Of a stretch of 43,981 nucleotides of DNA, positions 14,050-38,464 are shown in pieces (within the stretch, counting starts at the first letter, position 1; every line of letters starts with the position of its first letter). A program made the position numbers and the translations under genes. The DNA comes from an uncultured Elusimicrobia bacterium (GTDB lineage Bacteria > Elusimicrobiota > Elusimicrobia > 2-01-FULL-59-12). The notes beneath the pieces are model-generated. The model saw only the letters and a list, made by a program, of their open reading frames with translations. It had not been told where the DNA came from and searched no databases. The DNA is taken from contig CAZDML010000004.1 of assembly GCA_964506645.1 (NCBI GenBank), positions 1 to 43,981 on the forward strand. The letters are read 5' to 3'.

Positions 14050-17000
14050 ATGAAATCCCACCTTTTCACACGAATTATTGCGGCCGTTTTGTGCCTTGCG
14101 ATGGGGCAAGAACCTGCAGCACAAGCAGCGCAATGGGCAACGGCCAATGAGCAACGGGCTACACATTGCGCATCGCGCATGGCCCATCGCGACGTTTCTC
14201 CTTTTTCCTCCCAAGCCTTGGTGGGCTGCCTCATCGCAGGCTTTGTCGGCTTTCATGCGCTTCACCAGGGGCATGCCGAGGCTATGCAACTTCGTATCAA
14301 TGCTGGGACCTTGCTGGGGATTTTAACGGGTTCAGCCGTCCTGGGCATTATGAAGTCCGGTGACAGTACCCCTCCTCCTATCGCTCTACAGATTCAGTAC
14401 CTTTCCACGGCGCCTCCCCCGATCTATCAAGACGCGATTCGACATTTTTTTGATGAAGAGGATTACCTTAGTCTTCGCGAAAGCGTACGACTCTCGGGTG
14501 GCCCGGACAATTTGGATGGCTATCGAGTAGCGCTCTTTATAAAAACGGTGCAAAGTGCAGAAATAGCCATTGTTTCTGAAGTCCGCTATGAAGCTATTCA
14601 CACCGTTACAGGAAAAACACATAAAGGGAAATTCGCCCTGCACTCGTCCTGGTTGGACAACCCGGAAGATCTACAGCAGGAGCTGTTAACTCTTGAACGA
14701 CTCCGCAATGACTCGCCCGACTTGTTCGAGAGCATTCCCGCACTCTATACCGTTGCTAGGATTTTGATCGATAGAAATCAACCGATCATTTTCGGAACGA
14801 CGGACTGGGTTCCGGTCGAAGATATTAATTTCCGTCTGAACCCATCGGGAACGCATCTAGAGCCCTACATCACTTATTTGGATCAGCCCTCCGATTCCTT
14901 ATCCCCCGAAGACGCTGATTGGGTGACAAGAGAAATCGCCCGCCTCTTAATTTCCACGGCATTAACTGGAACTACTCTGGTCCCGTCACTCAATACCGGC
15001 ATGTTTGCGCTAGAGCGGCGATCGGGGGATAGGCCTAAAGTCTGGCTTGTCGGAGGAACTCCGCTCAGAGAAGAAGCGATTGAGTCTGCTGTCGGGGCAC
15101 TCGCAGAGCAATTTTTAATGCTTCTGGGTCTTCGACTCTATGATGCCGAAGAGCATCGAGCGAAGAACATGGATACAGGGTTACCCACGCACCCGATTTT
15201 TACCCCCGAACAGTTGCTGGCCGGTTTCCATGCGATGCTCATAGATAAAGTAGGTGCAGTTTCCGGCATGAAATTATTCATCGCCTTTGTCGCTCAGCTG
15301 GGATACAGCATTGAGCGCCTCAACACATTAGAAGAATATACCGGCTTCACCCCCGAAGCACTGACGGAGCGTTTAACAGCCTATTTACACACTCTTCATC
15401 CCAGGGCCATCGTTGCAAAGTCTCCCTGGGGCCAACTCTACGGAGAACTGAATGAAGGCAAAGAGCATCTTCAGACTCTTCTGAAAAAAGAGGGTCTTCA
15501 GATCCTGCTTCGGGCTTACCCGCAGATCCAAGAACTAATCGATACCGCGCGTTTTGCTGACCTGAAAGTTCTCATCGAAGACATCATTGCGCCGGAGCAG
15601 GAAACAACGATTTTGTTCGAAGCGCCGTTCATCCAGTCCCTGAAATATCTTCGACAAATCCAATTTCTAAGAAAAGAGGATGCGGTTCCATTTGTTCGAG
15701 ATGTTTTCAAAGCCATCGTGGGCCAGTTTGTAAACGAACATCAGATTGGTTTTGTGGCAGGCCAATCCGAAGCGATTGCTTTGGCTGTGGAACAGCTTCA
15801 AGCGCTTTATGAGGAAGTTTGGGGGTGGACCGATGATTTGCAAACCTTCATGGTGGAACTTGTGGCTGCGCGCGAGTGGAGTGTCGAAGAAGCCAGCCAC
15901 AAACTAAAACGTCTTCTGGTTGCACTCACCGAGCGGCACCGTACTTACAACCAAAGCATCCGTCTGCGAAAACCCGGCTTTGAGAACAAGCCCTATGCCA
16001 TGACAGGGGGAAGTTCTGAGCGAGCCGTGGTGCGGTGGCCCTACGTGGGTATTGAGGGACAACAGCCCTTGTCCCATACGGGTGTTTGGCCACAAGCTCA
16101 GGCGCTTTTGGACTTTCTGAGCACGCCAACCACGAAATTGCCGAAGTATGCCGACATCATTGTGATTTTTGGCAATGACCTGCTGGCCTCCTCCCGAAAA
16201 GGCGCGGAACTCTATAAGCAATACACAGCGGCGGCCAAAAAACTAGGACGTCCTTTCCCGAAAATATTCGTGACGGGCGGCAGCGGCCGGGACACGCCGG
16301 CGCATTGGGTGAAAGGGGAAGCTCACGCGCATCAGCAAATTCTCCGTGAGCACGCTATTTCACCAGGGCGCATTTTCCGGGAATCAAGAGCAACGAATAC
16401 AGAAGACAATGCCATTGCCGCAGCCAATTTCTTCCTTCAGCGCGGATATACCGAGGAGGATCCTGTCGATACGGTGGTTGTCATTCAAAGCCCTGCCTCG
16501 ACCCTGCGTGCACAGTTGACGCTCGAAAAGTGGGCTGGAACATTGGCCCGGCGGGTCGTGGGTGTTGCCCCTTTTGATCCCGATATCGAGCGGTCCGACC
16601 CGGCCACACGGCTGCGGCTCCTGGAGACCGCCGTCGGTGAAATTGGCCGTCTTCTGGATTATCCGGGCAAAGGCTATTTCCGTGCTGTCGAGATTCCGGA
16701 TGAGATTCTTCAATTAACGTTAGATGTCCAACGCTCACTGCTCACCGATCCTTCTCTGCGGCCAGAAACGCGTACGGCACTGATTCGTTGGGGAGATGTG
16801 ATGAGTGTAGAACTCGTGCGCAGGGCTTTGCCGGCGGGCCGCAGCCCTCAGCACTTTCCGCCTCCGGCTCCATTCGAACCTACGACGCGAATCCTAACAG
16901 CTTCTGGCAATTCCAATATGAGTTATTTGAACCGTCATACGTCGCAATGGTCTTGGATGCGTAGGGAATTGTGGCCCACCATGATTCAAGCCAAAGTCGC

Positions 17001-20000
17001 GGCTGGACGAAAACAGATCGAGGTTATTATTCTTGGGGCCTCCACCGGGGAAGAACTGGCTCGTGCGTATCATGAAATCATTTTGGCTTTGCAGGACCAA
17101 CATGAAGACCCGCGGCAATGGATTCTTCGAATCCAAGGATGGGAAATCGATGCAGGGACGGCAGCCGCTGCCGCGCGGCGCTTAGCGGGCGAAGAACCCT
17201 TTGTGTATGACTTGCCCGAGCGTGCCGACAAAGCGCCTCTTCACCTGGATTATGCTCAGCAATGCGTGAAGACGCTCAATAGTTTTCTGGGTGTGCCTGG
17301 CCATTCTTTAGAAGTGCATCAGGCAGATTTCCAGACAGCACATTTGGATGAGCTCTATCCAGAGACGGACCTCGTTATCGAAAATCAAGTCTTCTATCAG
17401 TTGGGTCTGACGAATGAGTCCATAGCGTTTTATGAACGCTTAGCCCGATGGGCTCGACCCTGGATGGTTGGGGGCGAGTTCTATTATTTGCATCAGTACG
17501 GAGGACGCCCTGTGCGCGAAGTTATGCATGAGACCCCTCTATCGGCGGGAGAACGTACGCATTTAGTCAGCTCCCCTTTAGTTATATCTCCATCAACCGT
17601 CTCTCCCATCCCAAGCATCAAAGTGGTGGCCATCGATTGGAACAGCACGCTTTATTCAGAAAGTAAGCAAACCCTACGGAAGGGAGCACGGGAATTCTTA
17701 GAAGGTCTCGGTGATCGTGGCATCACGGCTTACGTGTGGAGCAATAACCCGGACGTCTGGAATCATGTGATCCGATTCGACCTGACGGGTTTGCTCCAGA
17801 AGCCTGCTTGGATTATTAAGGATAAACGGGCCCAGTTAACGCAGTTGATAGAGCATCTTCGGGTTCCTCCCGATCAGATTGTGGCGATGGGTGATGAGGC
17901 GGCGGATATTCTCGTGGCCAAACGCTTGGGAACAAAAGCCATTCTCATTCGAAGTCGCAGCAGCGTGGATACGTCGCTTCTCGTAGGAAAAATGGTGCCG
18001 GATGCCGTCATCCCCAATCTGTATCATCCCGACAATATCGCAGATCTCATCGCCGGTGGCGTAAACCCCGACCCGGCGGGCCGTCGCTGGACCTCCTTTT
18101 TTGTGCCGCTGCAAGGAAAAATCATTATGGCCATTCCTCAAGACGGCCTTACGGGGGATGAACTGGAACGCTATGTTCGCCGTGTCGCGCCATTTCGGGA
18201 AACAAGACAATTTGTCTGGCCTTTAATGCCCGTGATGATTGTGCCCACGCTCGCCATGGCCGGGCTGCTCAGCGTCCTGCCCTATTCCGACCCTCATTCT
18301 CTGACGGCTAAAACGCTCATTTTTCTTGCTGCGGCCTCGTTCGGCGCTACGGGCGCGGTTGTGAGTGCTTGGCTCTTTCGTCTCGCCCACAGCAAGGTCT
18401 ATCACGTATCCGGACAAGAGCAACATGCGTATATTGGCGCACCTGTTCCACCGACCGCAGACGAAAAACCTCTTCTTTTTAAACGCGGACTGGTGTATGC
18501 CTTGGCGCTGGTGCTTCCTCTCTTGGGTGCTGTGGCGAGCGTCCTTTTGGGTGCGAATGCAGGAGTCGCCGCTGGACTTGCGGTCACATCCCTGGGTGCT
18601 CCCTGGGCCATACACAGCTATCGCAACAATAAGCCGTTCGGGCAGATCTTTGCGGGTCATCCTGTCTGGAAGGAATTGTTGATGGCGCACCCGTCGGAAG
18701 ACTTCCCATCGCTTTATCAAGAATTCTTGAACTTTTTGCGCTTCCTGGGACAGGAAAATCATCGTACTGATAAACCCACAACTCTCTTGCGAGACGCCCA
18801 CCATGTATTAAATCGTTGGAACATCAAACGGGTGGCAAATATTGCCATTCCTGAAGTGGTGCGACCCGATTTTGAAATGCTGAATGCGGGTGTACGACAG
18901 TCGCTTGCTGGCGTGGGCTGGGCTTCTCGAGAAGATATTCTGCAACGCCTTCGCTCCCTGGCTCATGCAGCGCCTCGAAATGAGACAGTCCTTTCCTTGG
19001 GGAGCAGTGATGGTGAGGGACTTCCTTTGCTGGAACTGGTCTTGTCTTATCGTGAAGTCACTCTTGTGGATTTGGACGATGTGAGCTTGCAGCGCGGTAT
19101 GGAGCGGCTACGTCGTGATCTTGTGCAAGATAAGCTTGGGTTAAACGCAGAACAGATAACAGCCATTCTCGCTCGTGTTCATGTGATTCGTGAAGATATT
19201 TCGGGAATTGTCGAAGAATTTACGGGTCACATAGATCATATTCTTCGCGAAGAAACGTCAGATGCCCGCCTTGTGGATGCTTTGGTTACATACCTTCGCT
19301 CCTATGGATCACGCTCTTCTTGGCCCGCACCTGCGTTCGGCGCCCACGATCTTGTTATTTGTCCACTCGTTATGACGCAGCTGCAGTCGGCCTTACCTCA
19401 CGTGATGCAAAAGCAGATCGATGCACGTATTTCTCATTTATCTCGAGAGCAACTCTTGGCCCTGATGGGTGCCGTGAATGAATTTACAGATGCGGTCATG
19501 AAGGCCCACCTGGCACACCTCGAGCAATGGGTAAAACCCACCGGGCATCTCTACTGGTCGGATACGACGGACGAGGTGGAATTTGATATTCGCGGACAAC
19601 AGCAAGCTCTCCCGATGATATCAATGGAGGCGTTCAAAGCTGCGGCCTCCAAGCATTTTGATGTTCGTCCCCTGGATCTCTGGACGTGGATTCAGACGAT
19701 TCCGACCGTCTCCATTTTGGGTCAGCTCTTCTTTGTTGAAGCGTTGGCAATGCGGCCGCATCGTGTGATCTCGGCAGGCATGCGAGTGAGAGACCGCCGA
19801 GGCCAGGAACGTGAGATTGATGAGGTTCGCGAGGATGGCAAGGTTCATCTCACAGGGGATGCCCCTCATATCTACATAAGTATGGGACTTCTGGAGATTG
19901 TTCCTGTTATCTCGCAAGAGGCCAAGAGTGAGGACACAGAGGAAGATGTAAAGCAGGGCACCCCCAGGAATTCCTATTTCTTGCTGCTTGTGCTTTTCTT

Positions 20001-23000
20001 GTTTACTGGCGGTTTGGCCCGTAGTGCGAAAGCGCAGGATGTTTCTATGCCGCATTCGTTCGTGACAGAGATGGTCTGGAGTGATTTTCCGTGGATTTCA
20101 GCATTGCTCGCGGTTGTCATCCCTGCGGCGGCCTGGGTGATATGGAAATACGTTCCTCGGTTTTGGGTGCCAGCCCCTTGGGTCGCTCAGATGGATTCTG
20201 CGGAGACCCGCTGGGAAGGTTGGCAGCAGATCCCTGCAATAGAACCAGAGACCGATGAAGTCGACGCACTCTATCACTTTTATTATTGGAGTCGTCACCC
20301 CGACTGGCAATCCTTGGCACCTCAAGATTGGAAGCAGTTAAAAGGGTTTGTCGAAAGCGCTCAAAAGCGTCAGGCTGCAGAGGGTTTCCCGGTTCTGGTT
20401 CTCCCGCCGGATCTGCTGGCGACGCTGCTCGCACAGCCGGAGGGCCTGGCCGAGCTCCTGCGCCGCGTTCATCCTTACACCCTCCAGTCGCTCGAGCATG
20501 CCGACTCGCCGGTGTCGCGCTTCACCATGCATGAGGGCGTGTACTACCAGCTTTTTGCAGAAAAATTACTTGGACGTCTGCCGGAAGGGGGCGTGAATCT
20601 TATAAATATTGATCCGCATTCGGACGCGATTTACCAGGCCCACGAGTATATGTCGAATCGCTTTTTGCGGGGCACAAATCAGGAGAAGGCCACGCAGCGG
20701 CTGCACTATAAGGGCGTCACAGATTTTAATTGGATCGCCGCCGCGGTCGGGGATGGGCTGGTGCGCGAAGCCGTGACCATCCCGCCGAAGCAAACGATCT
20801 GGACCGTGGGTCATATTCGCCGCCACGCCGAAGGGTGGCCGATGGTTATGGAGACCGATATCAGCGATCTCGGTAAAGCAGCTGAGTTTACTGAGGAGGC
20901 CCCGCTCTGGGTCACCGTGGATATGGATATGTTCAGCTTGCGCTCTGAATTTGTCCCTCAGCAGACGATTTATCATCATGGCGAACGGACGGCACGCGCG
21001 ATCATCGAGCTAATGGTTGCAGATCTTGGGTTGCATCGAAAGAAGATCGATCGCTTGTCGACGGCGGTCTCTCCAACCTACATCTCACTAAAGGCTACCC
21101 CTAAACAGATCGACATGTACCAGAGGGTTACCGAGGAAGTGCTTTCACCGCTGCTTCGGCCCAAGGCGACGGCAGCCCCAACTCCGATGGGGTCGTCCCC
21201 CGTACTCAAGGTACTCTTGGAAGCGTTGGGACTTAGCGATGCGGTCATTGCCAACTCGGAAAATGTGCAAGAGACGGGAGCGCCCTATACCCTCAAGCGG
21301 TTGCAGCTTCCCGTGCGATCGAGTCAGCATGGCGTCCCCCAGGGCCTGGATATTCTTCGACATGAGTTGACACTGCATTACCTAGGCCCCCTGAGTATGG
21401 ACTTGGTGTATTCTAAAGAGGGCACGTTGGTGGCCATTTCGCCGACCCCCAGCACATCCCTTCCTAAAAAACTGTTTTACATCGATGCGACGCCGTACCA
21501 GTTCACTTTTCCGCAATCCTCGGAGGCACGCGCAGAGTGGGAGAAATTTGTAGCGCAATACAAACGGGACCAGGATGTCGTGCGTGTGTATCTGTCCTAC
21601 TTCAAACGATCCAGCGGATTAGAGCCACGACGGCTCAATAGCCTGGCCCCACTCGCGCACGCCCATTACGATGCTGCCGATAAAAAATGGGAGGTCGCCG
21701 GCATAAACATCCATTTATTCGATATTACGCGCTGGCTTTCGGCCGCTGCGAAACTCGGACGCCGTATCGTTTTGCCTGTCTTTCCTACGGTGTATCATCC
21801 GCAGTCCACCCAACTATCAGAATCCGACCGCAACTACTACAAGGCGTTGCACGAAGAGGTGTCTTATAAAAAGGACCAGCGTATTCTGGTTGTCGGTCCC
21901 GGATCCGGACTGGAAGTCTGGGCGTTAGCCCAGAAAACAGAGCTTCCAATTTCTGTCATTGGCATCAATCCGTTGGAAGTCGCCAACGTGAAAGCGCTCG
22001 CTGCGCTCGGGGGCTTTTCCGTTAATATTCTCGTTGGCGATAACGTCATCGATGAAAACGGCCATCCTCGATTCCCGGGAATAGAATTCGATGTCATCGT
22101 CTGGAACATGCCGGCGCTGGAACATCCGCTAACCTACGACTTAACGCATAAGCAGTTGCATCAGTATCACGATGGCGATTTGGGCGGCGAAACCCTCTCC
22201 CGTTTTGGCATTGGACTTCTAAAAGTTCTCGCTCCACAAGGTTACTCTCTTATATGGAACCGCTTGCCGCGCGGTACAGAAAATCCTGCACAGGTGATCC
22301 GAGACTACCTGCATCTGAAGGTAGAGGATTCACAGACGACTTCATTTGAAGTGGAGGAATTAGATCGCGGTGTCTATCGGATTTCCCGCGCGCCTTCGGT
22401 CGCACAGCGCGTGGGAATGGGCATGCCGCACCATCTCTACAACCTTTACCATCCGGAGGCTGTACTGACGCGTTCGGGGGATTCCTCCATGAAACCAAAA
22501 CATTCGCGGCGGCCCTGGGGTGTGATTGTTCTGGGCTTAGCTTCGGGTTTTGCAGGCGGGATGTCCCTTCTACTGGCGCAGAACGGCACGCTGCATGAGA
22601 TGTATCCTGAGGTTCTTCTTTTTACGCTCATCAGTGGTGTCGTGACAAGCCTTGTGTGGGCCTCCCTGCAGGAAATGCATGCTACGAAAAGTGAGTCGTA
22701 TTCTTCACGTCTGAGTATCTACTTAGCGCTGTCGGTTTTGTGTGTTGGCAGTTGTATGCCTCTATCCCTGGGTATTTTTACCGGTGTCTTTATTCATTTG
22801 TTTATTTCGCTCAGTCTTCGCTCCTCCGATGATGCGGTAAAGACGCCGGAAGCGGTTTTGTCGCGACTCTGGCCCGCCTTTTTTGCGTCTTTAGAATCTC
22901 AGCAGCCGGAGGAGCGTGAGCGCGCGGAAGCTGCCTTGATCGATGGGTTGTTCGTTTTTGCCATGCATCCACGTCTCTATCTACGGCGCATTATGACGCT

Positions 23001-23730
23001 GGCCAAACAAGAGCGGGCCACGACGCCTCTATCCGAAGATCATGAACTACGTTGGCTCGCCAAAGAGGCCCAAGGAGCATTGCGCTCCATGGGCGTTGCC
23101 GTTGTCCTGAGCGACGGGCAGGACACCCACGGTTTCTGGCATCTGTCCCCTCGTTTGTATCGTGTGCTGCGTACGGATGCTGCATCTGCCCAGATGGATG
23201 GAAAGCCGCTTCGCATCGTATACGCCCACCATCTCGACAGACGCCCGCGCGCGCAAGACCCGATGTATCTTGATAAGAAGGAGAACGTGCTTTATGTGAA
23301 CATTGATTACTTTGTGGCATTAGCAAAGAAGTTGACGGCGCTCCAAGATCTTCCTGAATTTACGAATGAATTGATCGCCTCATCGGTGCACCATGAATTC
23401 GCCATCCCCTTGTCCGAATATCATTTCGAGCCTCTGCCGTTAGAGGAGGCGCTGTTTTCTCCGGACCGTTCTACGTCCAAGGGACGTTGGTGGAACACGT
23501 TCTTAAAGGGCCTCTTTTTTGGCCTATTTTTTGTTGTTCCTGCGTTGCTCGATGCGCAAACGATCCGTCCGAATGTGGATGCTATGACGCTGGCTTCCAA
23601 AATCCATGGGGTTTCTTCTTCGGGATACTCGGGGGTGTCCTCCTGGACCGTAGACGATCTTTTCCATTCCAAACCCAAAGGGCGGATGGTCACGCCCATC
23701 GATCATGAGCGACTGCGCCGCGCCGCGTAA
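14050..23730 (+). CDS. Giant mosaic membrane protein (3226 aa): conserved leader, possible kinase-like region, DUF218/YdcF, CheR-like methyltransferase, HAD-like, TM bundle, second SAM-MTase, internal signal peptide, UPF0489-like, HemK/MTS-like MTase, TM bundle, internal signal peptide, ..RRAA tail
   Basis: Uninterrupted 9.7-kb ORF. DUF218 IIVIFG..IFVTGGSG..GEA..ESRATNTEDNA (~16150-16540); LGASTGEE (~17035); IDWNSTL..MGDEAADI (~17617-18030); LSLGSSDG..VDLD (~18980-19760); IDPHSD..FNWIAAAV..VDMDMF (~20520-21140); VVGPGSG..DVIVWNMP (~21770-22380). Confidence 0.88.
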   Translation: MKSHLFTRIIAAVLCLAMGQEPAAQAAQWATANEQRATHCASRMAHRDVSPFSSQALVGCLIAGFVGFHALHQGHAEAMQLRINAGTLLGILTGSAVLGIMKSGDSTPPPIALQIQYLSTAPPPIYQDAIRHFFDEEDYLSLRESVRLSGGPDNLDGYRVALFIKTVQSAEIAIVSEVRYEAIHTVTGKTHKGKFALHSSWLDNPEDLQQELLTLERLRNDSPDLFESIPALYTVARILIDRNQPIIFGTTDWVPVEDINFRLNPSGTHLEPYITYLDQPSDSLSPEDADWVTREIARLLISTALTGTTLVPSLNTGMFALERRSGDRPKVWLVGGTPLREEAIESAVGALAEQFLMLLGLRLYDAEEHRAKNMDTGLPTHPIFTPEQLLAGFHAMLIDKVGAVSGMKLFIAFVAQLGYSIERLNTLEEYTGFTPEALTERLTAYLHTLHPRAIVAKSPWGQLYGELNEGKEHLQTLLKKEGLQILLRAYPQIQELIDTARFADLKVLIEDIIAPEQETTILFEAPFIQSLKYLRQIQFLRKEDAVPFVRDVFKAIVGQFVNEHQIGFVAGQSEAIALAVEQLQALYEEVWGWTDDLQTFMVELVAAREWSVEEASHKLKRLLVALTERHRTYNQSIRLRKPGFENKPYAMTGGSSERAVVRWPYVGIEGQQPLSHTGVWPQAQALLDFLSTPTTKLPKYADIIVIFGNDLLASSRKGAELYKQYTAAAKKLGRPFPKIFVTGGSGRDTPAHWVKGEAHAHQQILREHAISPGRIFRESRATNTEDNAIAAANFFLQRGYTEEDPVDTVVVIQSPASTLRAQLTLEKWAGTLARRVVGVAPFDPDIERSDPATRLRLLETAVGEIGRLLDYPGKGYFRAVEIPDEILQLTLDVQRSLLTDPSLRPETRTALIRWGDVMSVELVRRALPAGRSPQHFPPPAPFEPTTRILTASGNSNMSYLNRHTSQWSWMRRELWPTMIQAKVAAGRKQIEVIILGASTGEELARAYHEIILALQDQHEDPRQWILRIQGWEIDAGTAAAAARRLAGEEPFVYDLPERADKAPLHLDYAQQCVKTLNSFLGVPGHSLEVHQADFQTAHLDELYPETDLVIENQVFYQLGLTNESIAFYERLARWARPWMVGGEFYYLHQYGGRPVREVMHETPLSAGERTHLVSSPLVISPSTVSPIPSIKVVAIDWNSTLYSESKQTLRKGAREFLEGLGDRGITAYVWSNNPDVWNHVIRFDLTGLLQKPAWIIKDKRAQLTQLIEHLRVPPDQIVAMGDEAADILVAKRLGTKAILIRSRSSVDTSLLVGKMVPDAVIPNLYHPDNIADLIAGGVNPDPAGRRWTSFFVPLQGKIIMAIPQDGLTGDELERYVRRVAPFRETRQFVWPLMPVMIVPTLAMAGLLSVLPYSDPHSLTAKTLIFLAAASFGATGAVVSAWLFRLAHSKVYHVSGQEQHAYIGAPVPPTADEKPLLFKRGLVYALALVLPLLGAVASVLLGANAGVAAGLAVTSLGAPWAIHSYRNNKPFGQIFAGHPVWKELLMAHPSEDFPSLYQEFLNFLRFLGQENHRTDKPTTLLRDAHHVLNRWNIKRVANIAIPEVVRPDFEMLNAGVRQSLAGVGWASREDILQRLRSLAHAAPRNETVLSLGSSDGEGLPLLELVLSYREVTLVDLDDVSLQRGMERLRRDLVQDKLGLNAEQITAILARVHVIREDISGIVEEFTGHIDHILREETSDARLVDALVTYLRSYGSRSSWPAPAFGAHDLVICPLVMTQLQSALPHVMQKQIDARISHLSREQLLALMGAVNEFTDAVMKAHLAHLEQWVKPTGHLYWSDTTDEVEFDIRGQQQALPMISMEAFKAAASKHFDVRPLDLWTWIQTIPTVSILGQLFFVEALAMRPHRVISAGMRVRDRRGQEREIDEVREDGKVHLTGDAPHIYISMGLLEIVPVISQEAKSEDTEEDVKQGTPRNSYFLLLVLFLFTGGLARSAKAQDVSMPHSFVTEMVWSDFPWISALLAVVIPAAAWVIWKYVPRFWVPAPWVAQMDSAETRWEGWQQIPAIEPETDEVDALYHFYYWSRHPDWQSLAPQDWKQLKGFVESAQKRQAAEGFPVLVLPPDLLATLLAQPEGLAELLRRVHPYTLQSLEHADSPVSRFTMHEGVYYQLFAEKLLGRLPEGGVNLINIDPHSDAIYQAHEYMSNRFLRGTNQEKATQRLHYKGVTDFNWIAAAVGDGLVREAVTIPPKQTIWTVGHIRRHAEGWPMVMETDISDLGKAAEFTEEAPLWVTVDMDMFSLRSEFVPQQTIYHHGERTARAIIELMVADLGLHRKKIDRLSTAVSPTYISLKATPKQIDMYQRVTEEVLSPLLRPKATAAPTPMGSSPVLKVLLEALGLSDAVIANSENVQETGAPYTLKRLQLPVRSSQHGVPQGLDILRHELTLHYLGPLSMDLVYSKEGTLVAISPTPSTSLPKKLFYIDATPYQFTFPQSSEARAEWEKFVAQYKRDQDVVRVYLSYFKRSSGLEPRRLNSLAPLAHAHYDAADKKWEVAGINIHLFDITRWLSAAAKLGRRIVLPVFPTVYHPQSTQLSESDRNYYKALHEEVSYKKDQRILVVGPGSGLEVWALAQKTELPISVIGINPLEVANVKALAALGGFSVNILVGDNVIDENGHPRFPGIEFDVIVWNMPALEHPLTYDLTHKQLHQYHDGDLGGETLSRFGIGLLKVLAPQGYSLIWNRLPRGTENPAQVIRDYLHLKVEDSQTTSFEVEELDRGVYRISRAPSVAQRVGMGMPHHLYNLYHPEAVLTRSGDSSMKPKHSRRPWGVIVLGLASGFAGGMSLLLAQNGTLHEMYPEVLLFTLISGVVTSLVWASLQEMHATKSESYSSRLSIYLALSVLCVGSCMPLSLGIFTGVFIHLFISLSLRSSDDAVKTPEAVLSRLWPAFFASLESQQPEERERAEAALIDGLFVFAMHPRLYLRRIMTLAKQERATTPLSEDHELRWLAKEAQGALRSMGVAVVLSDGQDTHGFWHLSPRLYRVLRTDAASAQMDGKPLRIVYAHHLDRRPRAQDPMYLDKKENVLYVNIDYFVALAKKLTALQDLPEFTNELIASSVHHEFAIPLSEYHFEPLPLEEALFSPDRSTSKGRWWNTFLKGLFFGLFFVVPALLDAQTIRPNVDAMTLASKIHGVSSSGYSGVSSWTVDDLFHSKPKGRMVTPIDHERLRRAA
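14128..14199. repeat. In-frame heptamer-periodic imperfect palindrome inside the giant ORF
   Basis: gcaatgg-gcaacgg-ccaatga-gcaacgg / attgcgc-atcgcgc-atggccc-atcgcga; GCGCAATG (14128) is the reverse complement of CATTGCGC (14164). Confidence 0.6.
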
Positions 23731-28248: not shown

Positions 28249-28274
28249 TAGAAGTCTTTAAAAAAGCGACTTTC

Positions 28275-28346
28275 GTCCTCATCGACTAGCGGTTAGGTCA
28301 GGTCCCTCTCAAGGACCAAGCACGGGTTCGATTCCCGTTGGGGACG
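28275..28346 (+). tRNA. tRNA-Glu (anticodon CTC); CCA not encoded
   Basis: Acceptor GTCCTCA/TGGGGAC, D-arm GAC..GTC, anticodon arm GGTCC-CTCTCAA-GGACC, T-arm ACGGG-TTCGATT-CCCGT. Confidence 0.95.
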
Positions 28347-28356
28347 GAAGTCGCTT

Positions 28357-28875: not shown

Positions 28876-30840
28876 TTAAGAGCCTTTCGCCTTTTTGGCT
28901 TGTTGGCGATATTGACGGGCTTTTTGATCGTTGGGGGTAACGCCGAGCCAGCCGTTTTCGTAGCACCCGGCAAGAAGTTCCAGCGCCTTGGCGTCACCAC
29001 CCGCGGCGGCTTGTTTGATGAGCTGCAGCGCTTTCTTTTCGTCCTTGGCGACGCCTTCCCCTTTCACATACAGCTGGCCTAAATTGAGTTGTGCTGCCGT
29101 CACACCGCCGGCCGCAGCTTTGGCGTACCAGGTCGCGGCCTGCGCAGGGTTGGCCGCCACACCCACGCCGCTTTCATACATCACACCCAAACGGTACTGT
29201 GCATCGGCATGTCCTTGTTCTGCGGCCTTCTGATACCACACGGCCGTTTGTGCGGGATCTTTGGGAACACCCTGGCCCAGGTAATACATGGCCCCGATGC
29301 GAACTTGCGATTCGACATGGCCCTGCTCCGCGGCTTTCTGGTACCCCTGTGCAGACTTCGCTAAATTTTTGGAAACACCCAGACCCGCTTCATACATGAA
29401 GCCGAGCTGCGCAAAGGCATCGACACTGCCTTGGTCTGCGGCTTTTTGCAACCAAAGATAGGCTTCGGCTGGATCTTTGGGGATTCCCTGGCCGTTGAGC
29501 AGCATGACGCCCAGATACACCTGCGCGTCGACTTGGCCGTTCTGTGCGGCTTTGCGTAAATAAGGAATGGCTTTGCTGGGATCCTTCGATGCCTTAGGAT
29601 CGTTGACCAGGGCGACCCCAACGATGGCTTGTGCTTCGGCGATGCCGTTGTCCGCGGCCTTCTGATACCACGCTTGTGCTTGGGCGGAATCTTTCGGAAC
29701 GCCTTCGCCTTCAGCGTACATCATGGCCAAATTGTATTGCGCTTCAGCGATGCCGCCTTCGGCGGCTTTGCGGTACCATTCAGCGGATTGCGCAGGATCT
29801 TTGGGCACCCCATCGCCCGTGGCGTAGAGCGCGGCCAGATTGTATTGCGCCTCATGAATATTTTTCTCGCCGGCTTTGCGGTACCAGACCGCCGCCTGCG
29901 CGACGTCCTTGGGAATGCCGTCCCCGTTCTGCAGCATGGCGCCGAGACGATAGGCCGCATCGGCATGGCCTTGTTCGGCAGCTTTTCGCAGCCAGTCCGA
30001 GGCCAGCGGCATGTTCTTGCCAACCCCCGTTCCCGAGCCATAAAAAAGTCCGAGATGATACTGGGCATCCGCGTCGCCCTGTTCGGCCGCTTTCTGGTAA
30101 TAGGTGATGGCTTGCGGAATATTGCGTGTAATGCCGTCGCCTTTGGCGAGCATCGTGGCAATAGCGAGCTGGGCTTTGGAATTGCCTTGCTCGGCTGCTT
30201 TGACATACCACGCAATCGCTTGCTGGAGATCTTGGGTCTGGCCTTCGCCGGTGTGAAACTGGCGTGCGTAATCGTACTGAGCACTTACTTCCCCGGCTTC
30301 GGCGGCTTTCTGCGTCCATTCTTTATGGCCGAGCCGGTAATGCGCTCGGGCATCGCCTTTCTCTGCCGCTTTCTGAAACCACATAGCGGCTTGAGCTGGG
30401 TCTTTCGTAAGGCCGACCCCATCCGCATAAATCGTGCCTACCTTATATTGGGCCTGGACTTCCCCTTGGGTGGCTGCCTTTTGATACCAATACAAAGCTT
30501 GTGCCGGGTCCTTGGGAACCCCCAACCCTTCACTGTACATCTGAGCCAGATAGAGCTGAGCAACCCCGTAATCCTTGTCTGCTGCCTTGCGGTACCACTC
30601 GGCGGCCTTTTCGGTGTCTTTTTTAACTCCTTGGCCGTTGGCGTAGATCTTCCCGATCGTAAACATGGCAAAGGAATTGCCCTGATCCGCCATGGGCGAC
30701 AGCAATTTCAGCGCGGTTTTATAATCCCCTTCGGTATAGGCCGTGAGTGCATCGGTGTTGGGCATGGCCCGGCTCCAAAGGGAGGCGGGACCCCCCAGAG
30801 TAAGGCTAAAAATAGCAACGAATAGGGTCTTTTGCTTCAT
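28876..30840 (-). CDS. Secreted Sel1-like (SLR) repeat protein, 16 full plus 1 truncated 36-aa repeats
   Basis: AQYxLGxMYxxGxGVxKDxxxAxxWYxKAAxxG repeats; signal peptide from MKQKTLFVAIF (30840). The longer called start runs through the riboswitch. Confidence 0.92.
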   Translation of the reverse strand: MKQKTLFVAIFSLTLGGPASLWSRAMPNTDALTAYTEGDYKTALKLLSPMADQGNSFAMFTIGKIYANGQGVKKDTEKAAEWYRKAADKDYGVAQLYLAQMYSEGLGVPKDPAQALYWYQKAATQGEVQAQYKVGTIYADGVGLTKDPAQAAMWFQKAAEKGDARAHYRLGHKEWTQKAAEAGEVSAQYDYARQFHTGEGQTQDLQQAIAWYVKAAEQGNSKAQLAIATMLAKGDGITRNIPQAITYYQKAAEQGDADAQYHLGLFYGSGTGVGKNMPLASDWLRKAAEQGHADAAYRLGAMLQNGDGIPKDVAQAAVWYRKAGEKNIHEAQYNLAALYATGDGVPKDPAQSAEWYRKAAEGGIAEAQYNLAMMYAEGEGVPKDSAQAQAWYQKAADNGIAEAQAIVGVALVNDPKASKDPSKAIPYLRKAAQNGQVDAQVYLGVMLLNGQGIPKDPAEAYLWLQKAADQGSVDAFAQLGFMYEAGLGVSKNLAKSAQGYQKAAEQGHVESQVRIGAMYYLGQGVPKDPAQTAVWYQKAAEQGHADAQYRLGVMYESGVGVAANPAQAATWYAKAAAGGVTAAQLNLGQLYVKGEGVAKDEKKALQLIKQAAAGGDAKALELLAGCYENGWLGVTPNDQKARQYRQQAKKAKGS

Positions 30841-30847
30841 ATGGGCA

Positions 30848-30900
30848 AGTCTAACAGGTGGACTTTGCTGTTGCAATACCGAATCTGGCTGGGGTATAAT
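30848..30900. promoter_or_regulatory. Divergent sigma70 promoters sharing one palindromic -35 (TTGCAA, 30871-30876)
   Basis: + strand TTGCAA-N18-TATAAT (30895-30900); - strand TTGCAA-N17-TAGACT (30853-30848), with TG extension, 7 nt before the Sel1 ATG. Confidence 0.6.
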
Positions 30901-30937: not shown

Positions 30938-31110
30938 CTCTTATCCAGAGTGGGGGTCCCGCAAACCTGTGTTTCAGGGGAGGCGGGACCAGCGTTCAGT
31001 GACACATCGAACGCTGGAGGGACGGGCCCGAGGATCCCACGGCAACCTTTAAAAAGGTGCCAACGCCTGGACACTTTAACCGCTGTGGTGGTTACTGATG
31101 CCGATAAGAG
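30938..31110 (+). ncRNA. SAM-I (S-box) riboswitch aptamer with ~60-nt insertion in P2
   Basis: P1 CTCTTATC/GATAAGAG; ATCCAGAG; GGAGGGACGGGCCCGAGGAT; CGGCAACC..GGTGCCAAC core; upstream of a thrC-like operon. Confidence 0.88.
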
Positions 31111-31119
31111 GAGGAATGT

Positions 31120-31158
31120 AACCCCAAGGGGCTATTCTCCGTGGGGTTTTTTATTTTT
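31120..31158 (+). terminator. Riboswitch expression-platform intrinsic terminator
   Basis: AACCCCA..TGGGGTT stem with inner GGGG/CTCC, then TTTTTTATTTTT ending at the thrC ATG. Confidence 0.75.
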
Positions 31159-32406
31159 ATGAGCGATCCAAAAATCAAAGCACTGCAGTGTAAAGAATGC
31201 GAACACCAGTACCCCGCCAAGGCGATTCACGTCTGTGAATTCTGCTTCGGTCCGCTGGAAGTCGTTTATAACTACGACAGCATCAAGAAGCGGGTGAGCC
31301 GTCAGAGTATCGAAGCCGGTCCCCGTACCCTCTGGCGCTATTGGGATCTTCTCCCGGTCGAATCCCGCGACGTGATCACGTTGCAGGAAGGCTTTACCCC
31401 GTTCTGGCATGCCAAAAACCTGGGGGAAGAGCTGGGCTTAAAGAAGCTCTACATCAAAAACGATTCTGTTAACCCGACCTTTTCTTTTAAAGACCGTGTC
31501 GTTGCCACCGCACTGAACCGCACCCGGGAGCTCGGGTTCGACACTATCGCTTGCGCGTCGACCGGAAACCTGGCCTGCGCCGTCGCCGCCTTCGGCTCGG
31601 TCGCCAAGCTGAAGACCTTTGTTTTTATCCCGGCCGACCTTGAACAGGGCAAGATCGTAGGCGCTGGAATTTGCCAGCCGACCATCGTCGGCGTGAAAGG
31701 CAACTACGACCAGGTGAACCGCCTCTGCGCGGAAGTCGCCGATGCCTTCAAGTGGGCGTTTGTGAACGTGAACATCCGACCCTACTATGCGGAAGGATCA
31801 AAGACCCTCGGTTTTGAAGTGGCCGAACAGCTCGGCTGGAAAGCGCCGGATCACTGTGTGGTGCCCATCGCCTCGGGGTCGCTGCTCACAAAGATTTATA
31901 AGGGTCTCCATGAGTTTATGGACCTGGGTCTCATCGAAAACCACAACGTTCGCATGACAGGCGCTCAGGCGGAAGGCTGCAGCCCGGTTGTCACGGCCTG
32001 GAAAGCCAAGTCCGATATCATTAAACCGATTCATCCCAATACGATCGCTAAGTCGCTAGCGATCGGGAATCCGGCCGATGGATTCTATGCCAAAAAGATC
32101 ATTGATAAGACGGGCGGGCTTGCTGAAAGTGTGACCGACCCCGAGATCGTAGAAGGCATTTCACTGCTCGCACGTACCGAAGGCATCTTCACAGAGACCG
32201 CCGGAGGGGTGACGATCGGTTCGTTGAAAAAGCTGGCCCAGTCTGGTAAGATTCAACCGAATGAGACGGTGGTTGCGTTTATCACCGGGAATGGCTACAA
32301 GACGCAAGAGGCAGTTCTGGGCGTGGCCGCAAAGCCCGTTGTCATCGACCCGTCCATCGCGCAATTTCGAGACATTTACGATCAACTTTCCGCCGTTCGA
32401 GCCTAA
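31159..32406 (+). CDS. thrC: Threonine synthase-family PLP enzyme (fold type II)
   Basis: Zn-ribbon CKEC..CEFC, LQEGFTP, NPTFSFKDR (PLP Lys), CASTGN, EGSKT, VVPIASGS, ETAGG, ITGNGYK. True reaction uncertain (see findings). Confidence 0.85.
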   Translation: MSDPKIKALQCKECEHQYPAKAIHVCEFCFGPLEVVYNYDSIKKRVSRQSIEAGPRTLWRYWDLLPVESRDVITLQEGFTPFWHAKNLGEELGLKKLYIKNDSVNPTFSFKDRVVATALNRTRELGFDTIACASTGNLACAVAAFGSVAKLKTFVFIPADLEQGKIVGAGICQPTIVGVKGNYDQVNRLCAEVADAFKWAFVNVNIRPYYAEGSKTLGFEVAEQLGWKAPDHCVVPIASGSLLTKIYKGLHEFMDLGLIENHNVRMTGAQAEGCSPVVTAWKAKSDIIKPIHPNTIAKSLAIGNPADGFYAKKIIDKTGGLAESVTDPEIVEGISLLARTEGIFTETAGGVTIGSLKKLAQSGKIQPNETVVAFITGNGYKTQEAVLGVAAKPVVIDPSIAQFRDIYDQLSAVRA

Positions 32407-32430
32407 CGCCACACACTTTTCGGAGGATTT

Positions 32431-32712
32431 ATGGCAGCTAAAGTTCGTATTCCAGCCCCTTTAAGAAAGCTCACCAAAGAGCAGGCCGTCGTTGATTGTA
32501 CCGGCAAGAATGTCGAAGAAATCTTGGCCAATTTGGAAAAACAATATCCGGGCATCAAAGAACGTATCTGCGATGAAAACGGTCAGATTCGCCGCTTCAT
32601 TAATGTGTTCATTAATGGGGAAGATATTCGCTTTAAAGACGGCGCTAAAACGGCTGTTGCCGAAGGCGCAGAAATTTCAATCATTCCTGCAATCGCAGGC
32701 GGCATTCGGTAG
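32431..32712 (+). CDS. Ubiquitin-like sulfur carrier, MoaD/ThiS/CysO family
   Basis: VRIPAPLRKLT..RRFINVFINGEDIRF..ISIIPAIAGG-IR; GGAGG RBS. Confidence 0.9.
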   Translation: MAAKVRIPAPLRKLTKEQAVVDCTGKNVEEILANLEKQYPGIKERICDENGQIRRFINVFINGEDIRFKDGAKTAVAEGAEISIIPAIAGGIR

Positions 32713-32720
32713 GAGTTATT

Positions 32721-32966
32721 GTGGTTAAGAAACAACTTGAACTGATTTATCCGACCAACCTCATCAAAGAACCTCTGATATATCAGATGGCCAAGAAAAT
32801 CCCGGTGGTGTTTAATATCCGCCGCGCGAAAGTAACGCCGACCATCGGCGAAATCGTTCTTGAGCTCGAAGCCGAAAACGATAAAGTGCTCACCGATGCC
32901 ATTGAATTTCTCTCCCGCAAAGGCGTCGAAATCCAGCCGGTCACCGGCTCCTCCGTAGAGTCTTAA
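32721..32966 (+). CDS. Stand-alone NIL domain protein
   Basis: LIYPTNLIKEPLIYQMAKKIPVVFNIRRAKVTPTIGEIVLEL..AIEFLSRKGVEI; GGAG RBS, GTG start. Confidence 0.85.
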   Translation: MVKKQLELIYPTNLIKEPLIYQMAKKIPVVFNIRRAKVTPTIGEIVLELEAENDKVLTDAIEFLSRKGVEIQPVTGSSVES

Positions 32967-34784: not shown

Positions 34785-36311
34785 TTATTTCCTGGGGAAA
34801 AGCGGGGTGCCTTTCTGGGTGAGCTGTCCTGCGGCAAGCTCCACACGGGTCGGGTCTTCGAAGAAGGCTCGGGCGCTCGTCGTGAAATCATCGGTTTGAC
34901 CCAGCTGACGCCAGATGGTTAGCGTTGTTTCCGGCATAAACGGCCAGAGGTAATACAAAATCATTTTCAGGGATACCAAGACGCCATAGAGCACATCTGG
35001 AATATCGGCCGGGTTTTCTTTGGCCATCTTCCACGGGGCCATCCGCTCGATAAATCCATTCACAGCGCTGATTGCTTTCCAGATTTCAGCCAGCGCCAAA
35101 TGAAAGGCCTGGTTCTCGAGATGGGCTGGGACATTCTTTACGAGAATCGCGCCCACTTCGGTGATGATTTCGCGGCGGGTTTGTGAGACTGGAATCTTTC
35201 CTTCGGAATATTTTTCCACCATGGTCAGTGCGCGCGAAATCAGGTTGCCCATGTTGTTGGCCAAAGCGGCGTTGTAGGCCGTTTTCATTAAATCTTTGGT
35301 GAAATCGCCGTCCGCGCCAAAGGGGAAAGCCGAGAGCAGAAGATAGCGCGTTCCTTCCACACCGTATTCCGAAATTAACTCGGCGGGGCGCACCACATTG
35401 CCCATGCTTTTGGACATTTTCTGGCCGTTGACGGTAAAAAAGCCGTGGGTAAAAACTTTTTTGGGCAGTTTCATACCGGCTGCCATCAGAAGTGCCGGCC
35501 AGATGACCGCATGGAACCACAAAATGTCTTTCGCCATCAGATGTAGATCGGCTGGCCACCATTCTTCCATTCGCTTTTGGTTTTCTGGATAACCCAGCGC
35601 TGTCAGGTAATTGATGAGGGCATCGACCCAGACATAGGTTGTCTGGGAGCGGTCCCAGGGTAGCGGAATCCCCCAGGCCAGCGTCGCCCGCGAGATGCTG
35701 ATATCGTTCACGTCTTGCTTGAGCTTGCCGATAACTTCATTGCGGCGCTCGATCGGAAAAATTTTGAAATGGTTGGGGTGGCTTTCGTCCGTGATCGCCG
35801 TAAGCAGGTCGTTTTTATAATGAGAGAGGCGGAAAAAGTAATTGTCTTCTTCTTGTACTTCCGGCTTGATGCGGTGATCGGGGCAGAGCCCACCGATGAG
35901 TTCGTCGTCCGTATAAAAACGTTCGCACTGAACACAGTATTTGCCCTGGTAACGGCCTTTGGAGATGGCCCCTTTGTCCCAGAGTGTCTTGAGGAAGGTT
36001 TGTACCGCACGCGCATGTTCCGGCATCGTGGTGCGGATAAACATGTCGTTGGTGATGTTGAGAGATTTCCAGGCCGATTGAAATTGTGCGGCGATTTCAT
36101 CGGTATAAAGCTGCGGATCTTTGTTGTGCGCGGCGGCGGCTTGGGCGATCTTGGTTCCGTGCTCATCGGTTCCGGTCAGGAAAAAGACTTCGTCCCCAAT
36201 CAAGCGGTGCCAGCGCGCCAGGACGTCCGCGGCCACAGTGGTATAGGCGTGCCCGATATGCGGCACATCATTGACGTAGTAAATGGGTGTTGTGAGATAG
36301 TATCGGGTCAT
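34785..36311 (-). CDS. metG: Methionine--tRNA ligase (short form, no C-terminal tRNA-binding domain)
   Basis: YLTTPIYYVND, HIGH, GTDEHG, YVWVDAL, KDILWFH, KMSKS. Confidence 0.97.
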   Translation of the reverse strand: MTRYYLTTPIYYVNDVPHIGHAYTTVAADVLARWHRLIGDEVFFLTGTDEHGTKIAQAAAAHNKDPQLYTDEIAAQFQSAWKSLNITNDMFIRTTMPEHARAVQTFLKTLWDKGAISKGRYQGKYCVQCERFYTDDELIGGLCPDHRIKPEVQEEDNYFFRLSHYKNDLLTAITDESHPNHFKIFPIERRNEVIGKLKQDVNDISISRATLAWGIPLPWDRSQTTYVWVDALINYLTALGYPENQKRMEEWWPADLHLMAKDILWFHAVIWPALLMAAGMKLPKKVFTHGFFTVNGQKMSKSMGNVVRPAELISEYGVEGTRYLLLSAFPFGADGDFTKDLMKTAYNAALANNMGNLISRALTMVEKYSEGKIPVSQTRREIITEVGAILVKNVPAHLENQAFHLALAEIWKAISAVNGFIERMAPWKMAKENPADIPDVLYGVLVSLKMILYYLWPFMPETTLTIWRQLGQTDDFTTSARAFFEDPTRVELAAGQLTQKGTPLFPRK

Positions 36312-37923: not shown

Positions 37924-38208
37924 CTAAGCGGCGTGCTTGAGGAGAGTTTCGTTAATGATCGTCTGATAGCCAATACCGCGGCGCTTCGCTTCGGCCTTTG
38001 CCCAAGCCAACGCTGCTGGGTGCAGCCGAATAAACGTCGGCTTGTATTTGTGCTCATCTAATTTAGGCGGTCGTCCACGCGGAGGGCGTTTAACGCCCAA
38101 TTTGCGCTCAATCGCTTTCCTGCCGGCTTCTACTTCCTCCGGCGTGGCACGTCTTGATTTGGAGAAATCAAAATCTCTTTCCAGATCTTTATCGTCGTTG
38201 TGCTTCAT
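37924..38208 (-). CDS. brnA: BrnA antitoxin of type II TA system
   Basis: DFDFSK..RGRPPK..IRL..LAWAK..GYQTIINETL; AAAGGA RBS before ATG 38208; overlaps brnT. Confidence 0.88.
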   Translation of the reverse strand: MKHNDDKDLERDFDFSKSRRATPEEVEAGRKAIERKLGVKRPPRGRPPKLDEHKYKPTFIRLHPAALAWAKAEAKRRGIGYQTIINETLLKHAA

Positions 38209-38464
38209 AGTGTTTCCTTTCTCGCTGATTCGCTTTGCGAGCACTGATAATTCGGCATACGGTGTCATCCTTGCGCAAAGTAACGATCACGAGCAGCAGA
38301 CCTTCCTCATATCTTGTTTCAGATCGTGACGAATGGAGAGGATCATCTTCAATCCGATGGTTCGGATCATCAAAAATCGTGATGGCCAGCTCAAACAAAA
38401 CCCCATGCTTGATAACGTTCGTAAGCGCCTTCCCAAAATCCCACTCATAATCTGTATATACCAT
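38189..38464 (-). CDS. brnT: BrnT family ribonuclease toxin (possibly with short internal deletion)
   Basis: EWD..K..N..KHG..FE.A..IFDDP..RIISARKA..ER..YE. Confidence 0.88.
   Translation of the reverse strand: MVYTDYEWDFGKALTNVIKHGVLFELAITIFDDPNHRIEDDPLHSSRSETRYEEGLLLVIVTLRKDDTVCRIISARKANQRERKHYEAQRR

Follow-up and report, generated by a model that had tools for sequence, protein, structure and literature searches.

Several bacterial routes to sulfur amino acids take their sulfur from the C-terminal thiocarboxylate of a small carrier protein. The MetM/MetO route, reported for Streptomyces albulus (Hasebe et al. 2024, Appl Environ Microbiol 90:e01247-24), comes closest among them to the locus discussed here. 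It comprises MetM, a homologue of threonine synthase (ThrC), the sulfur carrier MetO, the protease Mec and the ligase MoeZ (summarized in bioRxiv 10.1101/2024.10.14.618325 and PMC12172450), and a riboswitch for S-adenosylmethionine (SAM) precedes metM (PMC12172450). Here we describe a related locus in 43,981 nucleotides of an uncultured Elusimicrobia bacterium (contig CAZDML010000004.1 of assembly GCA_964506645.1, positions 1 to 43,981), hereafter called the window. Its three genes encode a ThrC-family enzyme dependent on pyridoxal phosphate (PLP), a ThiS/MoaD-type sulfur carrier and a small NIL-domain protein, and they follow a leader with an unusual SAM-I aptamer. We think it likely that this is a MetM/MetO operon for the biosynthesis of homocysteine, and thus methionine, with a NIL accessory and under SAM-I control.

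Recognizing such pathways in genomes is complicated by annotation, as MetM is often misannotated as threonine synthase according to GapMind (bioRxiv 10.1101/2024.10.14.618325). A Microcystis homologue that is 51.6% identical to MetM lies beside a MetO-like gene (PMC12172450). The ThrC of Bacillus subtilis is reported to be 33% identical to MetM, the same distance that we measured between the MetM-like clade described below and canonical ThrCs.

In Wolinella succinogenes, a set consisting of HcyS, HcyD, HcyF and MetY is reportedly at work: a JAMM-type protease is said to cut off the carrier residue that follows the diglycine, and the sulfur of the resulting thiocarboxylate ends up in homocysteine. 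The name 'protein thiocarboxylate pathway' has been used for this route (PMC5764234).

The enzyme, the carrier and their genomic context

An earlier note on this DNA, made by reading the letters, had placed three genes at 31159-32966. Their presence and coordinates turned out to be exact: three same-strand open reading frames (ORFs) of the window's ORF list span the interval from end to end, and scans with hidden Markov models match PALP, ThiS and NIL domains. The metM-like gene (31159-32406, + strand) encodes a ThrC-family PLP enzyme of 415 residues with an N-terminal four-cysteine zinc ribbon, a predicted O-phosphohomoserine-dependent homocysteine synthase. It is followed after a spacer of 24 nt by the metO-like gene (32431-32712, +) for a CysO-type ThiS/MoaD sulfur carrier of 93 residues, which ends in ...PAIAGG-IR. 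After another 8 nt comes the NIL gene (32721-32966, +), whose product is a stand-alone NIL-domain protein of 81 residues and a proposed regulatory or accessory subunit. Both downstream genes have a Shine-Dalgarno sequence, GGAGG for the carrier and AGGAG for the NIL protein.

By domain content the enzyme belongs to the fold-type II PLP enzymes of the threonine synthase family, with 232 bits to PALP (PF00291) and 295 bits to TIGR00260. It stays just under the cut-off of PRK08197 (294.5 against 303 bits) and far from that of the cysteate synthase model (72 against 325 bits). The catalytic lysine K111 in the motif SFKDR is invariant, as are four cysteines within the N-terminal 55 residues that would form the zinc ribbon. 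Solved ThrC structures match the enzyme at only about 200 bits and without residues 1-55, that is, without the ribbon. In addition, the ThrC loop NPYRxEGQKT is changed to RPYYAEGSKT throughout the MetM-like clade.

How far does this clade extend? The closest homologues of the enzyme come from metagenome-assembled genomes (MAGs) of Elusimicrobiota, the best being 91% identical, and all homologues carry the name 'threonine synthase'. A locus scan with one genome per species yielded at least 594 loci. The best 80, at 59-78% identity, were analyzed and belong to Elusimicrobiota, Nitrospirota, Cyanobacteria, Chloroflexota, Aquificota, Planctomycetota and Actinomycetes; cyanobacterial homologues are 59-62% identical to the window enzyme. 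The Aquifex member shares 61% identity with the window enzyme and 36% with the ThrC of Aquifex itself (PDB 2zsj), which argues that the MetM-like clade is a distinct, conserved orthologous group and not the housekeeping ThrC.

The carrier matches ThiS (PF02597) with 68 bits and the SAMP1 model NF041918 with 70 bits, and its best match in the PDB is Mycobacterium tuberculosis CysO (3dwg_C, E = 5e-19). It is 58% identical to a cyanobacterial orthologue. The earlier note had pointed to the GG-IR end and concluded that a JAMM protease must unmask the diglycine. The tail is indeed there and fits trimming, but it varies by lineage. Most orthologous carriers end in GG; tails of one to four residues characterize Elusimicrobiota and turn up here and there in other groups.

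Across the best 80 loci a ThiS gene follows the enzyme gene in most cases. Genes for ThiF-type activating enzymes (E1) adjoin the cluster in 14 loci, including one of Elusimicrobiota (L012), and further neighbors are JAB proteases, TusA, cysteine desulfurases, CysO-CysM-like pairs, ThiS-ThiF fusions and sulfite reductases. A Nitrospirota supercluster (L009, 3000-8512; L013, 2586-9155) lines up a small ThiS, a CysM-like PALP enzyme, ThiF, the MetM-like enzyme, ThiS, NIL and a further ThiF, so that two carriers and two E1 enzymes stand side by side; L013 adds a JAB gene. A Dehalococcoidia MAG has a sulfite/nitrite reductase with a C-terminal ThiS fusion (L015, 6995-8983) next to its MetM-NIL-ThiS cluster.

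The window itself is poorer in such neighbors. Pfam scans covered 25 window ORFs, namely the operon itself, the gene on either side of it and 20 more (all but both giant ORFs and a handful of short ones), and the whole 44-kb window was searched by tblastn with ThiF, JAB, TusA, CysM, ThrB, Hom and cysteine desulfurase as queries. No ThiF/MoeB, JAB/JAMM, TusA, CysM, homoserine kinase or homoserine dehydrogenase was found among the 25 ORFs, and the whole-window tblastn agrees, which bears out an earlier statement that the window holds neither a ThiF/MoeB activator nor a JAMM gene.

Regulation and gene order point to methionine and O-phosphohomoserine

If the enzyme serves methionine biosynthesis, its control should tell. 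SAM-I riboswitches above the Rfam gathering score lie directly upstream of the MetM-like gene in eight loci of Elusimicrobiota, three of Chloroflexota and one of Actinomycetes, and the aptamers of orthologous leaders score 56-87 bits. One actinobacterial locus (L016, 4670-4924) has a T-box of 102 bits in front of the MetM-like gene instead of a SAM riboswitch. The specifier codon of a T-box normally precedes a conserved purine, so that AUG (Met), as read in the loop GAA-C-AUG-A, is probably the specifier here. Taken together, control of the clade by SAM-I or T-box elements spans four phyla.

Planctomycetota provide direct evidence from gene context on the substrate. In three loci (L049, 2425-6218; L052, 2446-6218; L035) a SAM-I riboswitch is followed by genes for homoserine dehydrogenase (hom), a GHMP-family homoserine kinase (thrB) and the MetM-like enzyme, with no adjoining carrier gene. 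Because this SAM-I operon joins hom, thrB and the metM-like gene in a SAM-controlled branch by way of O-phosphohomoserine, it supports O-phosphohomoserine as the substrate.

The gamma-replacement by a ThrC paralogue with a carrier thiocarboxylate, as the earlier note had proposed, thus finds support on several sides: in the published MetM/MetO system, in SAM-I and T-box control, in the hom-thrB-metM operons, in sulfur-gene neighbors and in the separation of the clade from ThrC.

An expanded SAM-I riboswitch in the leader

A sigma-70-like promoter, TTGCAA-18-TATAAT (30871-30900, +), is a pattern match with 10 of 12 consensus positions that lies 38 nt upstream of P1. The SAM-I aptamer occupies 30938-31111 (+) and is collinear with the SAM-I element of L083, the locus of the closest relative (enzyme 91% identical), outside an insertion. 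Its P1 is formed by CUCUUAUC at 30938-30945 and GAUAAGAG at 31104-31111. An intrinsic terminator predicted by RNAfold serves as the putative expression platform (31120-31158, +), with a stem at 31120-31148 and a U-run to 31158 that abuts the ATG; a hairpin plus T-run terminator is kept across Elusimicrobiota leaders. From this anatomy, SAM would repress the operon through termination.

The standard annotation does not reveal this element. At gathering score, Rfam found no riboswitch in the window, and in E-value mode it gave a partial SAM-I match of 34.1 bits at 31001-31089 (gathering score of RF00162: 44.4 bits). This placement puts P1 wrongly and was replaced by 30938-31111 after alignment with the L083 leader, whose own SAM-I scores 74 bits. 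The window aptamer falls below the threshold because a 61-nt domain of two hairpins, hpA and hpB, interrupts P2 (30957-31017, +); by the alignment with L083 it sits on the 5' side of P2, adjacent to the kink-turn (k-turn). Around it, the conserved core segments and P1-P4 are intact. The G-A/A-G region of P2 is retained as well, and the insertion lies within or beside the 5' strand of P2a. The minimum-free-energy fold of the 178-nt window RNA keeps P1-P4 (z = -3.5). For SAM-I control as asserted in the earlier note this means that the aptamer stands, on the strength of the L083 alignment and the fold; it lies outside the range that had been assigned to the operon, is atypical and scores below threshold.

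Is the insertion an accident of this one genome? It is missing from the leaders of L083-L085, and on its own it folds into two hairpins with -33.4 kcal/mol (z = -5.6). A gapped-pattern scan of metagenomes uncovered three further leaders that carry an insertion of 58-64 nt in this position, each upstream of a MetM-like gene: L088 (2199-2290, +), L089 (641-726, -) and L090 (2843-2930, +), the last in a locus that also has ThiS and NIL genes. The hairpin stems differ in sequence and yet pair; hairpin B, for instance, has CCAGCGUUC/GAACGCUGG in the window, CCAUGUUCC/GGAACAUGG in L088 and CAUCCGCC/GGCGGAUG in L089. Three of the four expanded leaders share the hairpin B loop AGNRACRCAUC. RNAalifold on the expanded leaders gives 14 pairs with compensatory changes and a consensus that keeps P1-P4. 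Since three other leaders share the insertion with covarying stems, we regard the window element as a conserved, expanded SAM-I variant and not as a broken one. With 34-40 bits, none of the four reaches the 44.4-bit threshold of RF00162, so that standard Rfam annotation misses them.

A mobile or repeated element was considered as the origin of the insertion and set aside in favor of a conserved structured expansion, as no second copy exists in the window or in 87 loci, and an exact 29-mer of the insertion had zero matches in the metagenome scan. Two sequence features nearby are recorded here as such. The 13-mer GGGAGGCGGGACC occurs twice (0.08 expected by chance), at 30978-30990 inside the riboswitch insertion and at 30780-30792 within the 5'-terminal part of the divergently transcribed Sel1-repeat gene described below, and a 20-nt inverted repeat (80%) joins 30776-30795 with 30952-30971.

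The start of the metM-like gene has its own peculiarity. Its ATG follows the terminator U-run directly and lacks a Shine-Dalgarno sequence, which both downstream genes possess. The sole similar sequence near this start is GAGGAGG at 31109-31115, which overlaps the 3' end of P1 and lies 43 nt upstream of the ATG. An alternative GTG start at 31141 was dismissed, since in L083 it lies out of frame or runs into a stop, and an AUG-UAA mini-ORF at 31117 lacks conservation.

The NIL protein, a possible third component

The NIL protein (PF09383, 44 bits against a cut-off of 24) has no cysteine in its 81 residues. Its gene adjoins the enzyme-carrier pair in 11 of the 12 fully analyzed Elusimicrobiota instances, with varied flanking genes, and in all seven Nitrospirota loci in the order enzyme-carrier-NIL. 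Chloroflexota have it in the order enzyme-NIL-carrier in 17 of 19 loci, the remaining two being cut by contig ends. No such adjacency is found in the loci of Cyanobacteria (0/33), Aquificota (0/3) and Planctomycetota (0/3). The cluster-linked NIL proteins have the motif FP..LI.EP.IY....NIRRA.V....G...LEL.G in common.

A connection to the carrier and its processing enzymes is also visible in fusions. An exhaustive NIL profile search returned 674 representatives, and among the best 150 there are seven ThiS-NIL proteins (such as P0366, P0378, P0389, P0428, P0435 and P0473), two PALP-NIL (such as P0481), one JAB-NIL (P0446), one ThiF-NIL (P0406) and several tandem NIL-NIL proteins (such as P0362 and P0364). 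In a motif scan, six ThiS-NIL proteins keep the PAIAGG of the carrier, followed by a linker of 1-25 residues. Because linker and NIL domain extend past PAIAGG, their diglycine could be exposed by cleavage alone. Neither a ferredoxin domain (Fer4) nor an ABC ATPase domain (ABC_tran) occurs among the best 150 representatives.

The AlphaFold2 model of the NIL protein (pLDDT 76) is ACT-like with the order E-H-E-E-H-E, and its best Foldseek matches in the PDB are the methionine-binding C2 domains of MetN (TM 0.78-0.81, rmsd 1.2-1.3 Å). The asparagine N32 shows no variation among 28 homologues and is kept by at least 90% in a set of 150. Its counterpart in a weak alignment with Escherichia coli MetN is N295 of the N-I-L motif, a residue that we take to have a role in methionine binding. 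[quoted passage not shown] Our literature search on NIL together with thiocarboxylates, ThiS or MetO found separate mentions and no paper that links them.

From the similarity of the predicted fold, one conserved asparagine and the analogy to these systems, we tentatively suggest that the NIL protein might be a methionine sensor. Two other functions were dismissed: a persulfide or sulfur-relay protein would need a cysteine, which is missing, and a ferredoxin subunit of the MA1822 type does not agree with the lack of Fer4 in the protein and its 150 nearest relatives.

A model for the operon

How could these parts work together? Transcription would start about 40 nt upstream of the SAM-I riboswitch. 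At high SAM, P1 would close, the terminator would form before the ATG and the operon would be off, and at low SAM polymerase would read through. The MetM-type enzyme would eliminate phosphate from O-phosphohomoserine on PLP and add sulfur from the C-terminal thiocarboxylate of the MetO-like carrier, which yields homocysteine. For this, a JAMM/Mec-type protease would trim IR from the GG-IR end, and a ThiF/MoeZ-type E1 would adenylate and sulfurate the trimmed carrier, both presumably encoded elsewhere in the genome. By analogy with the published MetM/MetO biochemistry and from the genomic context, we hold the core of this pathway, homocysteine from O-phosphohomoserine and a carrier thiocarboxylate, to be highly probable.

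The role of NIL is the least certain part of the mechanism. Probably as a dimer, the protein would sense a sulfur amino acid, namely methionine, and modulate either the maturation and charging of MetO or the activity of MetM, a post-translational feedback for which it would bind MetO, the enzymes that process or activate MetO, or MetM itself. A more far-reaching and rather speculative version sees NIL as a dedicated third component of MetM/MetO in at least three phyla, which acts at the level of the carrier. Methionine-loaded NIL would then block maturation, activation or MetM, and the leader would represent an undescribed subclass of SAM-I. Some lineages would make a MetO-GG-linker-NIL precursor that is cut by JAMM, much like ubiquitin fusion precursors, and others, the window included, would make MetO as GG-xx together with a separate NIL. 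If true, NIL would provide fast feedback at the protein level on top of the SAM riboswitch.

Weighing the alternatives

Several observations weigh against the assignment as a MetM/MetO operon with a NIL sensor. The enzyme passes the TIGR00260 equivalog for threonine synthase with its 295 bits against a cut-off of 167, and a profile built from three actinobacterial homologues had Acidimicrobiales and MAGs, not Streptomyces, among its top 120 matches. We know of no enzymology or genetics for the MetM-like clade outside Streptomyces. The study of the cyanobacterial homologue saw no clear MetM activity and proposed moonlighting as threonine deaminase (PMC12172450). In the window, genes for E1, JAMM, thrB and hom are all missing by Pfam and tblastn, the riboswitch stays under the Rfam threshold, and its SAM binding is a prediction. 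On the side of NIL, the fusions are unannotated metagenome gene calls, of which some (PALP-NIL, JAB-NIL) could reflect lost stop codons. Searches of the PDB with the single sequence and with a profile matched no MetN structure, and the hhalign pairing of FNIRRA with the NNIISA of MetN, which sets N32 on N295, is weak (probability 11%).

Some of these points would fit an ordinary threonine synthase, maybe with a secondary function, threonine deamination for instance, for which the carrier and NIL genes are mere neighbors. The equivalog score, the name given to every homologue in the sources and the threonine deaminase reported for Microcystis with no clear homocysteine product (PMC12172450) speak for it. 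Such an enzyme should, however, not be under SAM-I control, or in one locus behind a T-box with a probable Met specifier, neither of which relates to threonine. Nor does it account for a ThiS linkage that persists across phyla in the majority of some 80 loci, for an Aquifex member that is much closer to the window enzyme than to its own solved ThrC, or for the altered motif and the added zinc ribbon; the name is also the misannotation that GapMind describes for MetM (bioRxiv 10.1101/2024.10.14.618325). We consider a plain ThrC very improbable. Hardly less improbable is a different sulfur product, be it cysteine from O-phosphoserine in the manner of CysM/CysO, a cysteate-like compound or the precursor of a thio-cofactor or siderophore, with SAM control as part of a general sulfur economy. 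Sequence does not reveal substrate specificity, the best structural relative of the carrier is the CysO of a cysteine pathway, and in Nitrospirota CysO-CysM-like pairs adjoin the cluster. Yet any CysM-like gene that occurs is a separate one with a small ThiS of its own, the cysteate synthase score is far too low, the SAM-I hom-thrB-metM operon points to a homoserine-derived substrate and the T-box specifier is probably Met. Homocysteine synthesis is moreover the published activity of MetM.

The other two alternatives leave the pathway in place and concern its regulation. The 61-nt insertion might have disabled the riboswitch, so that the operon is constitutive or constitutively terminated. The score of 34.1 against 44.4 bits is in line with this, as is the position of the insertion next to the k-turn, which the P2 pseudoknot needs. 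Against it stand the intact core segments and P1-P4, the independent folding of the insert and the three further MetM-like leaders with a two-hairpin insertion in this position, differing stems, a conserved loop and 14 compensatory pairs. Folding has also been reported for elaborated k-turns that were placed into SAM-I (PMC4005666). A functional variant is the reading we keep, and a dead riboswitch appears unlikely. For NIL the case is less clear-cut. Instead of sensing methionine it could serve as a structural adaptor or a specificity factor, or as a pro-domain that is cleaved off the carrier. It might, for example, hold MetO for JAMM or E1, or steer the MetO thiocarboxylate to MetM over CysM, MoaE and ThiG. 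The recurrent ThiS-NIL proteins that keep the junction GG, the fusions to ThiF and JAB and the lack of sequence-level likeness to MetN C2 in the PDB searches would agree with such a role, as would the Nitrospirota clusters, where two carriers and two E1 enzymes could make use of a specificity factor. On the other hand, the best structural matches are ligand-binding domains, MetN C2 and ACT, the asparagine aligned with MetN N295 is conserved, and tandem NIL-NIL proteins suggest ACT-like dimers. NIL also recurs in three otherwise unrelated methionine systems, the transporter, L-ASST and MetM/MetO, which sensing explains more easily. The adaptor is a possibility to be taken seriously that we nevertheless find somewhat doubtful, and a methionine-sensing NIL is the role we carry forward, with due reserve.

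Other features of the window

The metG gene for methionyl-tRNA synthetase (34785-36311, -) lies 1.8 kb downstream of the operon within a tatD-metG-holB-tmk block. The same block is found near the cluster in L001 and L085, and its closeness to a methionine operon may be chance synteny. On the other side, the divergent neighbor (28876-30840, -) encodes a secreted-looking protein of 654 residues with 14 Sel1 repeats; its longest ORF call (732 residues from a GTG at 31074) would run into the riboswitch and is probably an overextension. Further away are a tRNA-Glu (CUC) at 28274-28347 (+) and two giant ORFs at 14050-23730 (+; 3226 residues) and 3646-8646 (-; 1666 residues). A BrnA antitoxin-like sequence, matched weakly and under the Pfam cut-off (37924-38268, -), and the adjoining 91-residue ORF (38189-38464) are possibly a toxin-antitoxin pair.

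What the locus adds

The core idea is not new, because the mechanism is that of the MetM/MetO pathway published for S. albulus (Hasebe 2024). With the core chemistry already published, the locus mainly extends the 2024 Streptomyces pathway to Elusimicrobiota. The gene pair itself is widespread, with further members in Nitrospirota, Chloroflexota, Aquificota, Planctomycetota, Acidimicrobiales and cyanobacteria. Two organisms from these lineages, Aquifex aeolicus and Acidimicrobium ferrooxidans, had been singled out as being without a known homocysteine route (PMC5764234). Because MetM-like genes are annotated as 'threonine synthase', metabolic readings of MAGs suffer from false calls of methionine auxotrophy and of threonine pathways.

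Three aspects go beyond the published pathway. The conserved NIL partner, together with its fusions to ThiS, ThiF, JAB and PALP, offers a handle on the role of NIL domains in methionine systems. The SAM-I-hom-thrB-metM operons provide genomic support for O-phosphohomoserine as the substrate. Finally, the leader is a SAM-I variant overlooked by standard Rfam annotation, and the expansion constitutes a natural test of how much elaboration is tolerated at the k-turn region.

Comparison with known systems

Judged by description, the window locus and MetM/MetO have a ThrC-like PLP enzyme beside a ThiS-type carrier and a SAM riboswitch upstream in common. In both, the carrier's C-terminus is extended and in need of trimming, and E1 and protease would be encoded elsewhere. 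The differences are the host, here Elusimicrobiota, the third gene NIL, which is not part of the GapMind pathway, and the expanded riboswitch. Compared with the SAM-I family RF00162, the window leader shares the P1-P4 four-way junction, the core sequences and the terminator platform, and together with the three related leaders it adds 58-64 nt in two hairpins, inside or adjacent to the 5' strand of P2a and close to the k-turn.

The two other carrier-dependent systems differ in their acceptors. In W. succinogenes this is MetY, a fold type I enzyme acting on O-acetylhomoserine, and there is no NIL gene, whereas the window has a ThrC paralogue and NIL. The CysO/CysM/MoeZ/Mec+ system of M. tuberculosis shares a fold-type II PLP enzyme, carrier-thiocarboxylate sulfur and a phosphorylated amino-acid substrate with the window. 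It makes cysteine from O-phosphoserine, however, with a CysO that ends in GG and a CysM-type enzyme of about 305-320 residues, in contrast to the ThrC-type enzyme with zinc ribbon described here.

NIL links the locus to two further systems. L-ASST (MA1821, a DUF39/COG1900 protein, and MA1822, a NIL-ferredoxin; also in Desulfovibrio) likewise has NIL in a homocysteine-forming system, and some of the 81-residue NIL proteins are named after MA1822 by JGI. Its substrate is aspartate semialdehyde and it works with ferredoxin and DUF39 domains, whereas the window would use a homoserine ester and has neither domain (no DUF39 in the window scans). With the C2 domains of MetN (PDB 3tuz, 3dhx, 2qrr) the window NIL protein shares the predicted fold and the conserved asparagine of the N-I-x motif, yet it stands alone instead of being fused to an ABC protein, is about 20% identical and reads NIRRA in place of NIIS or NIL.

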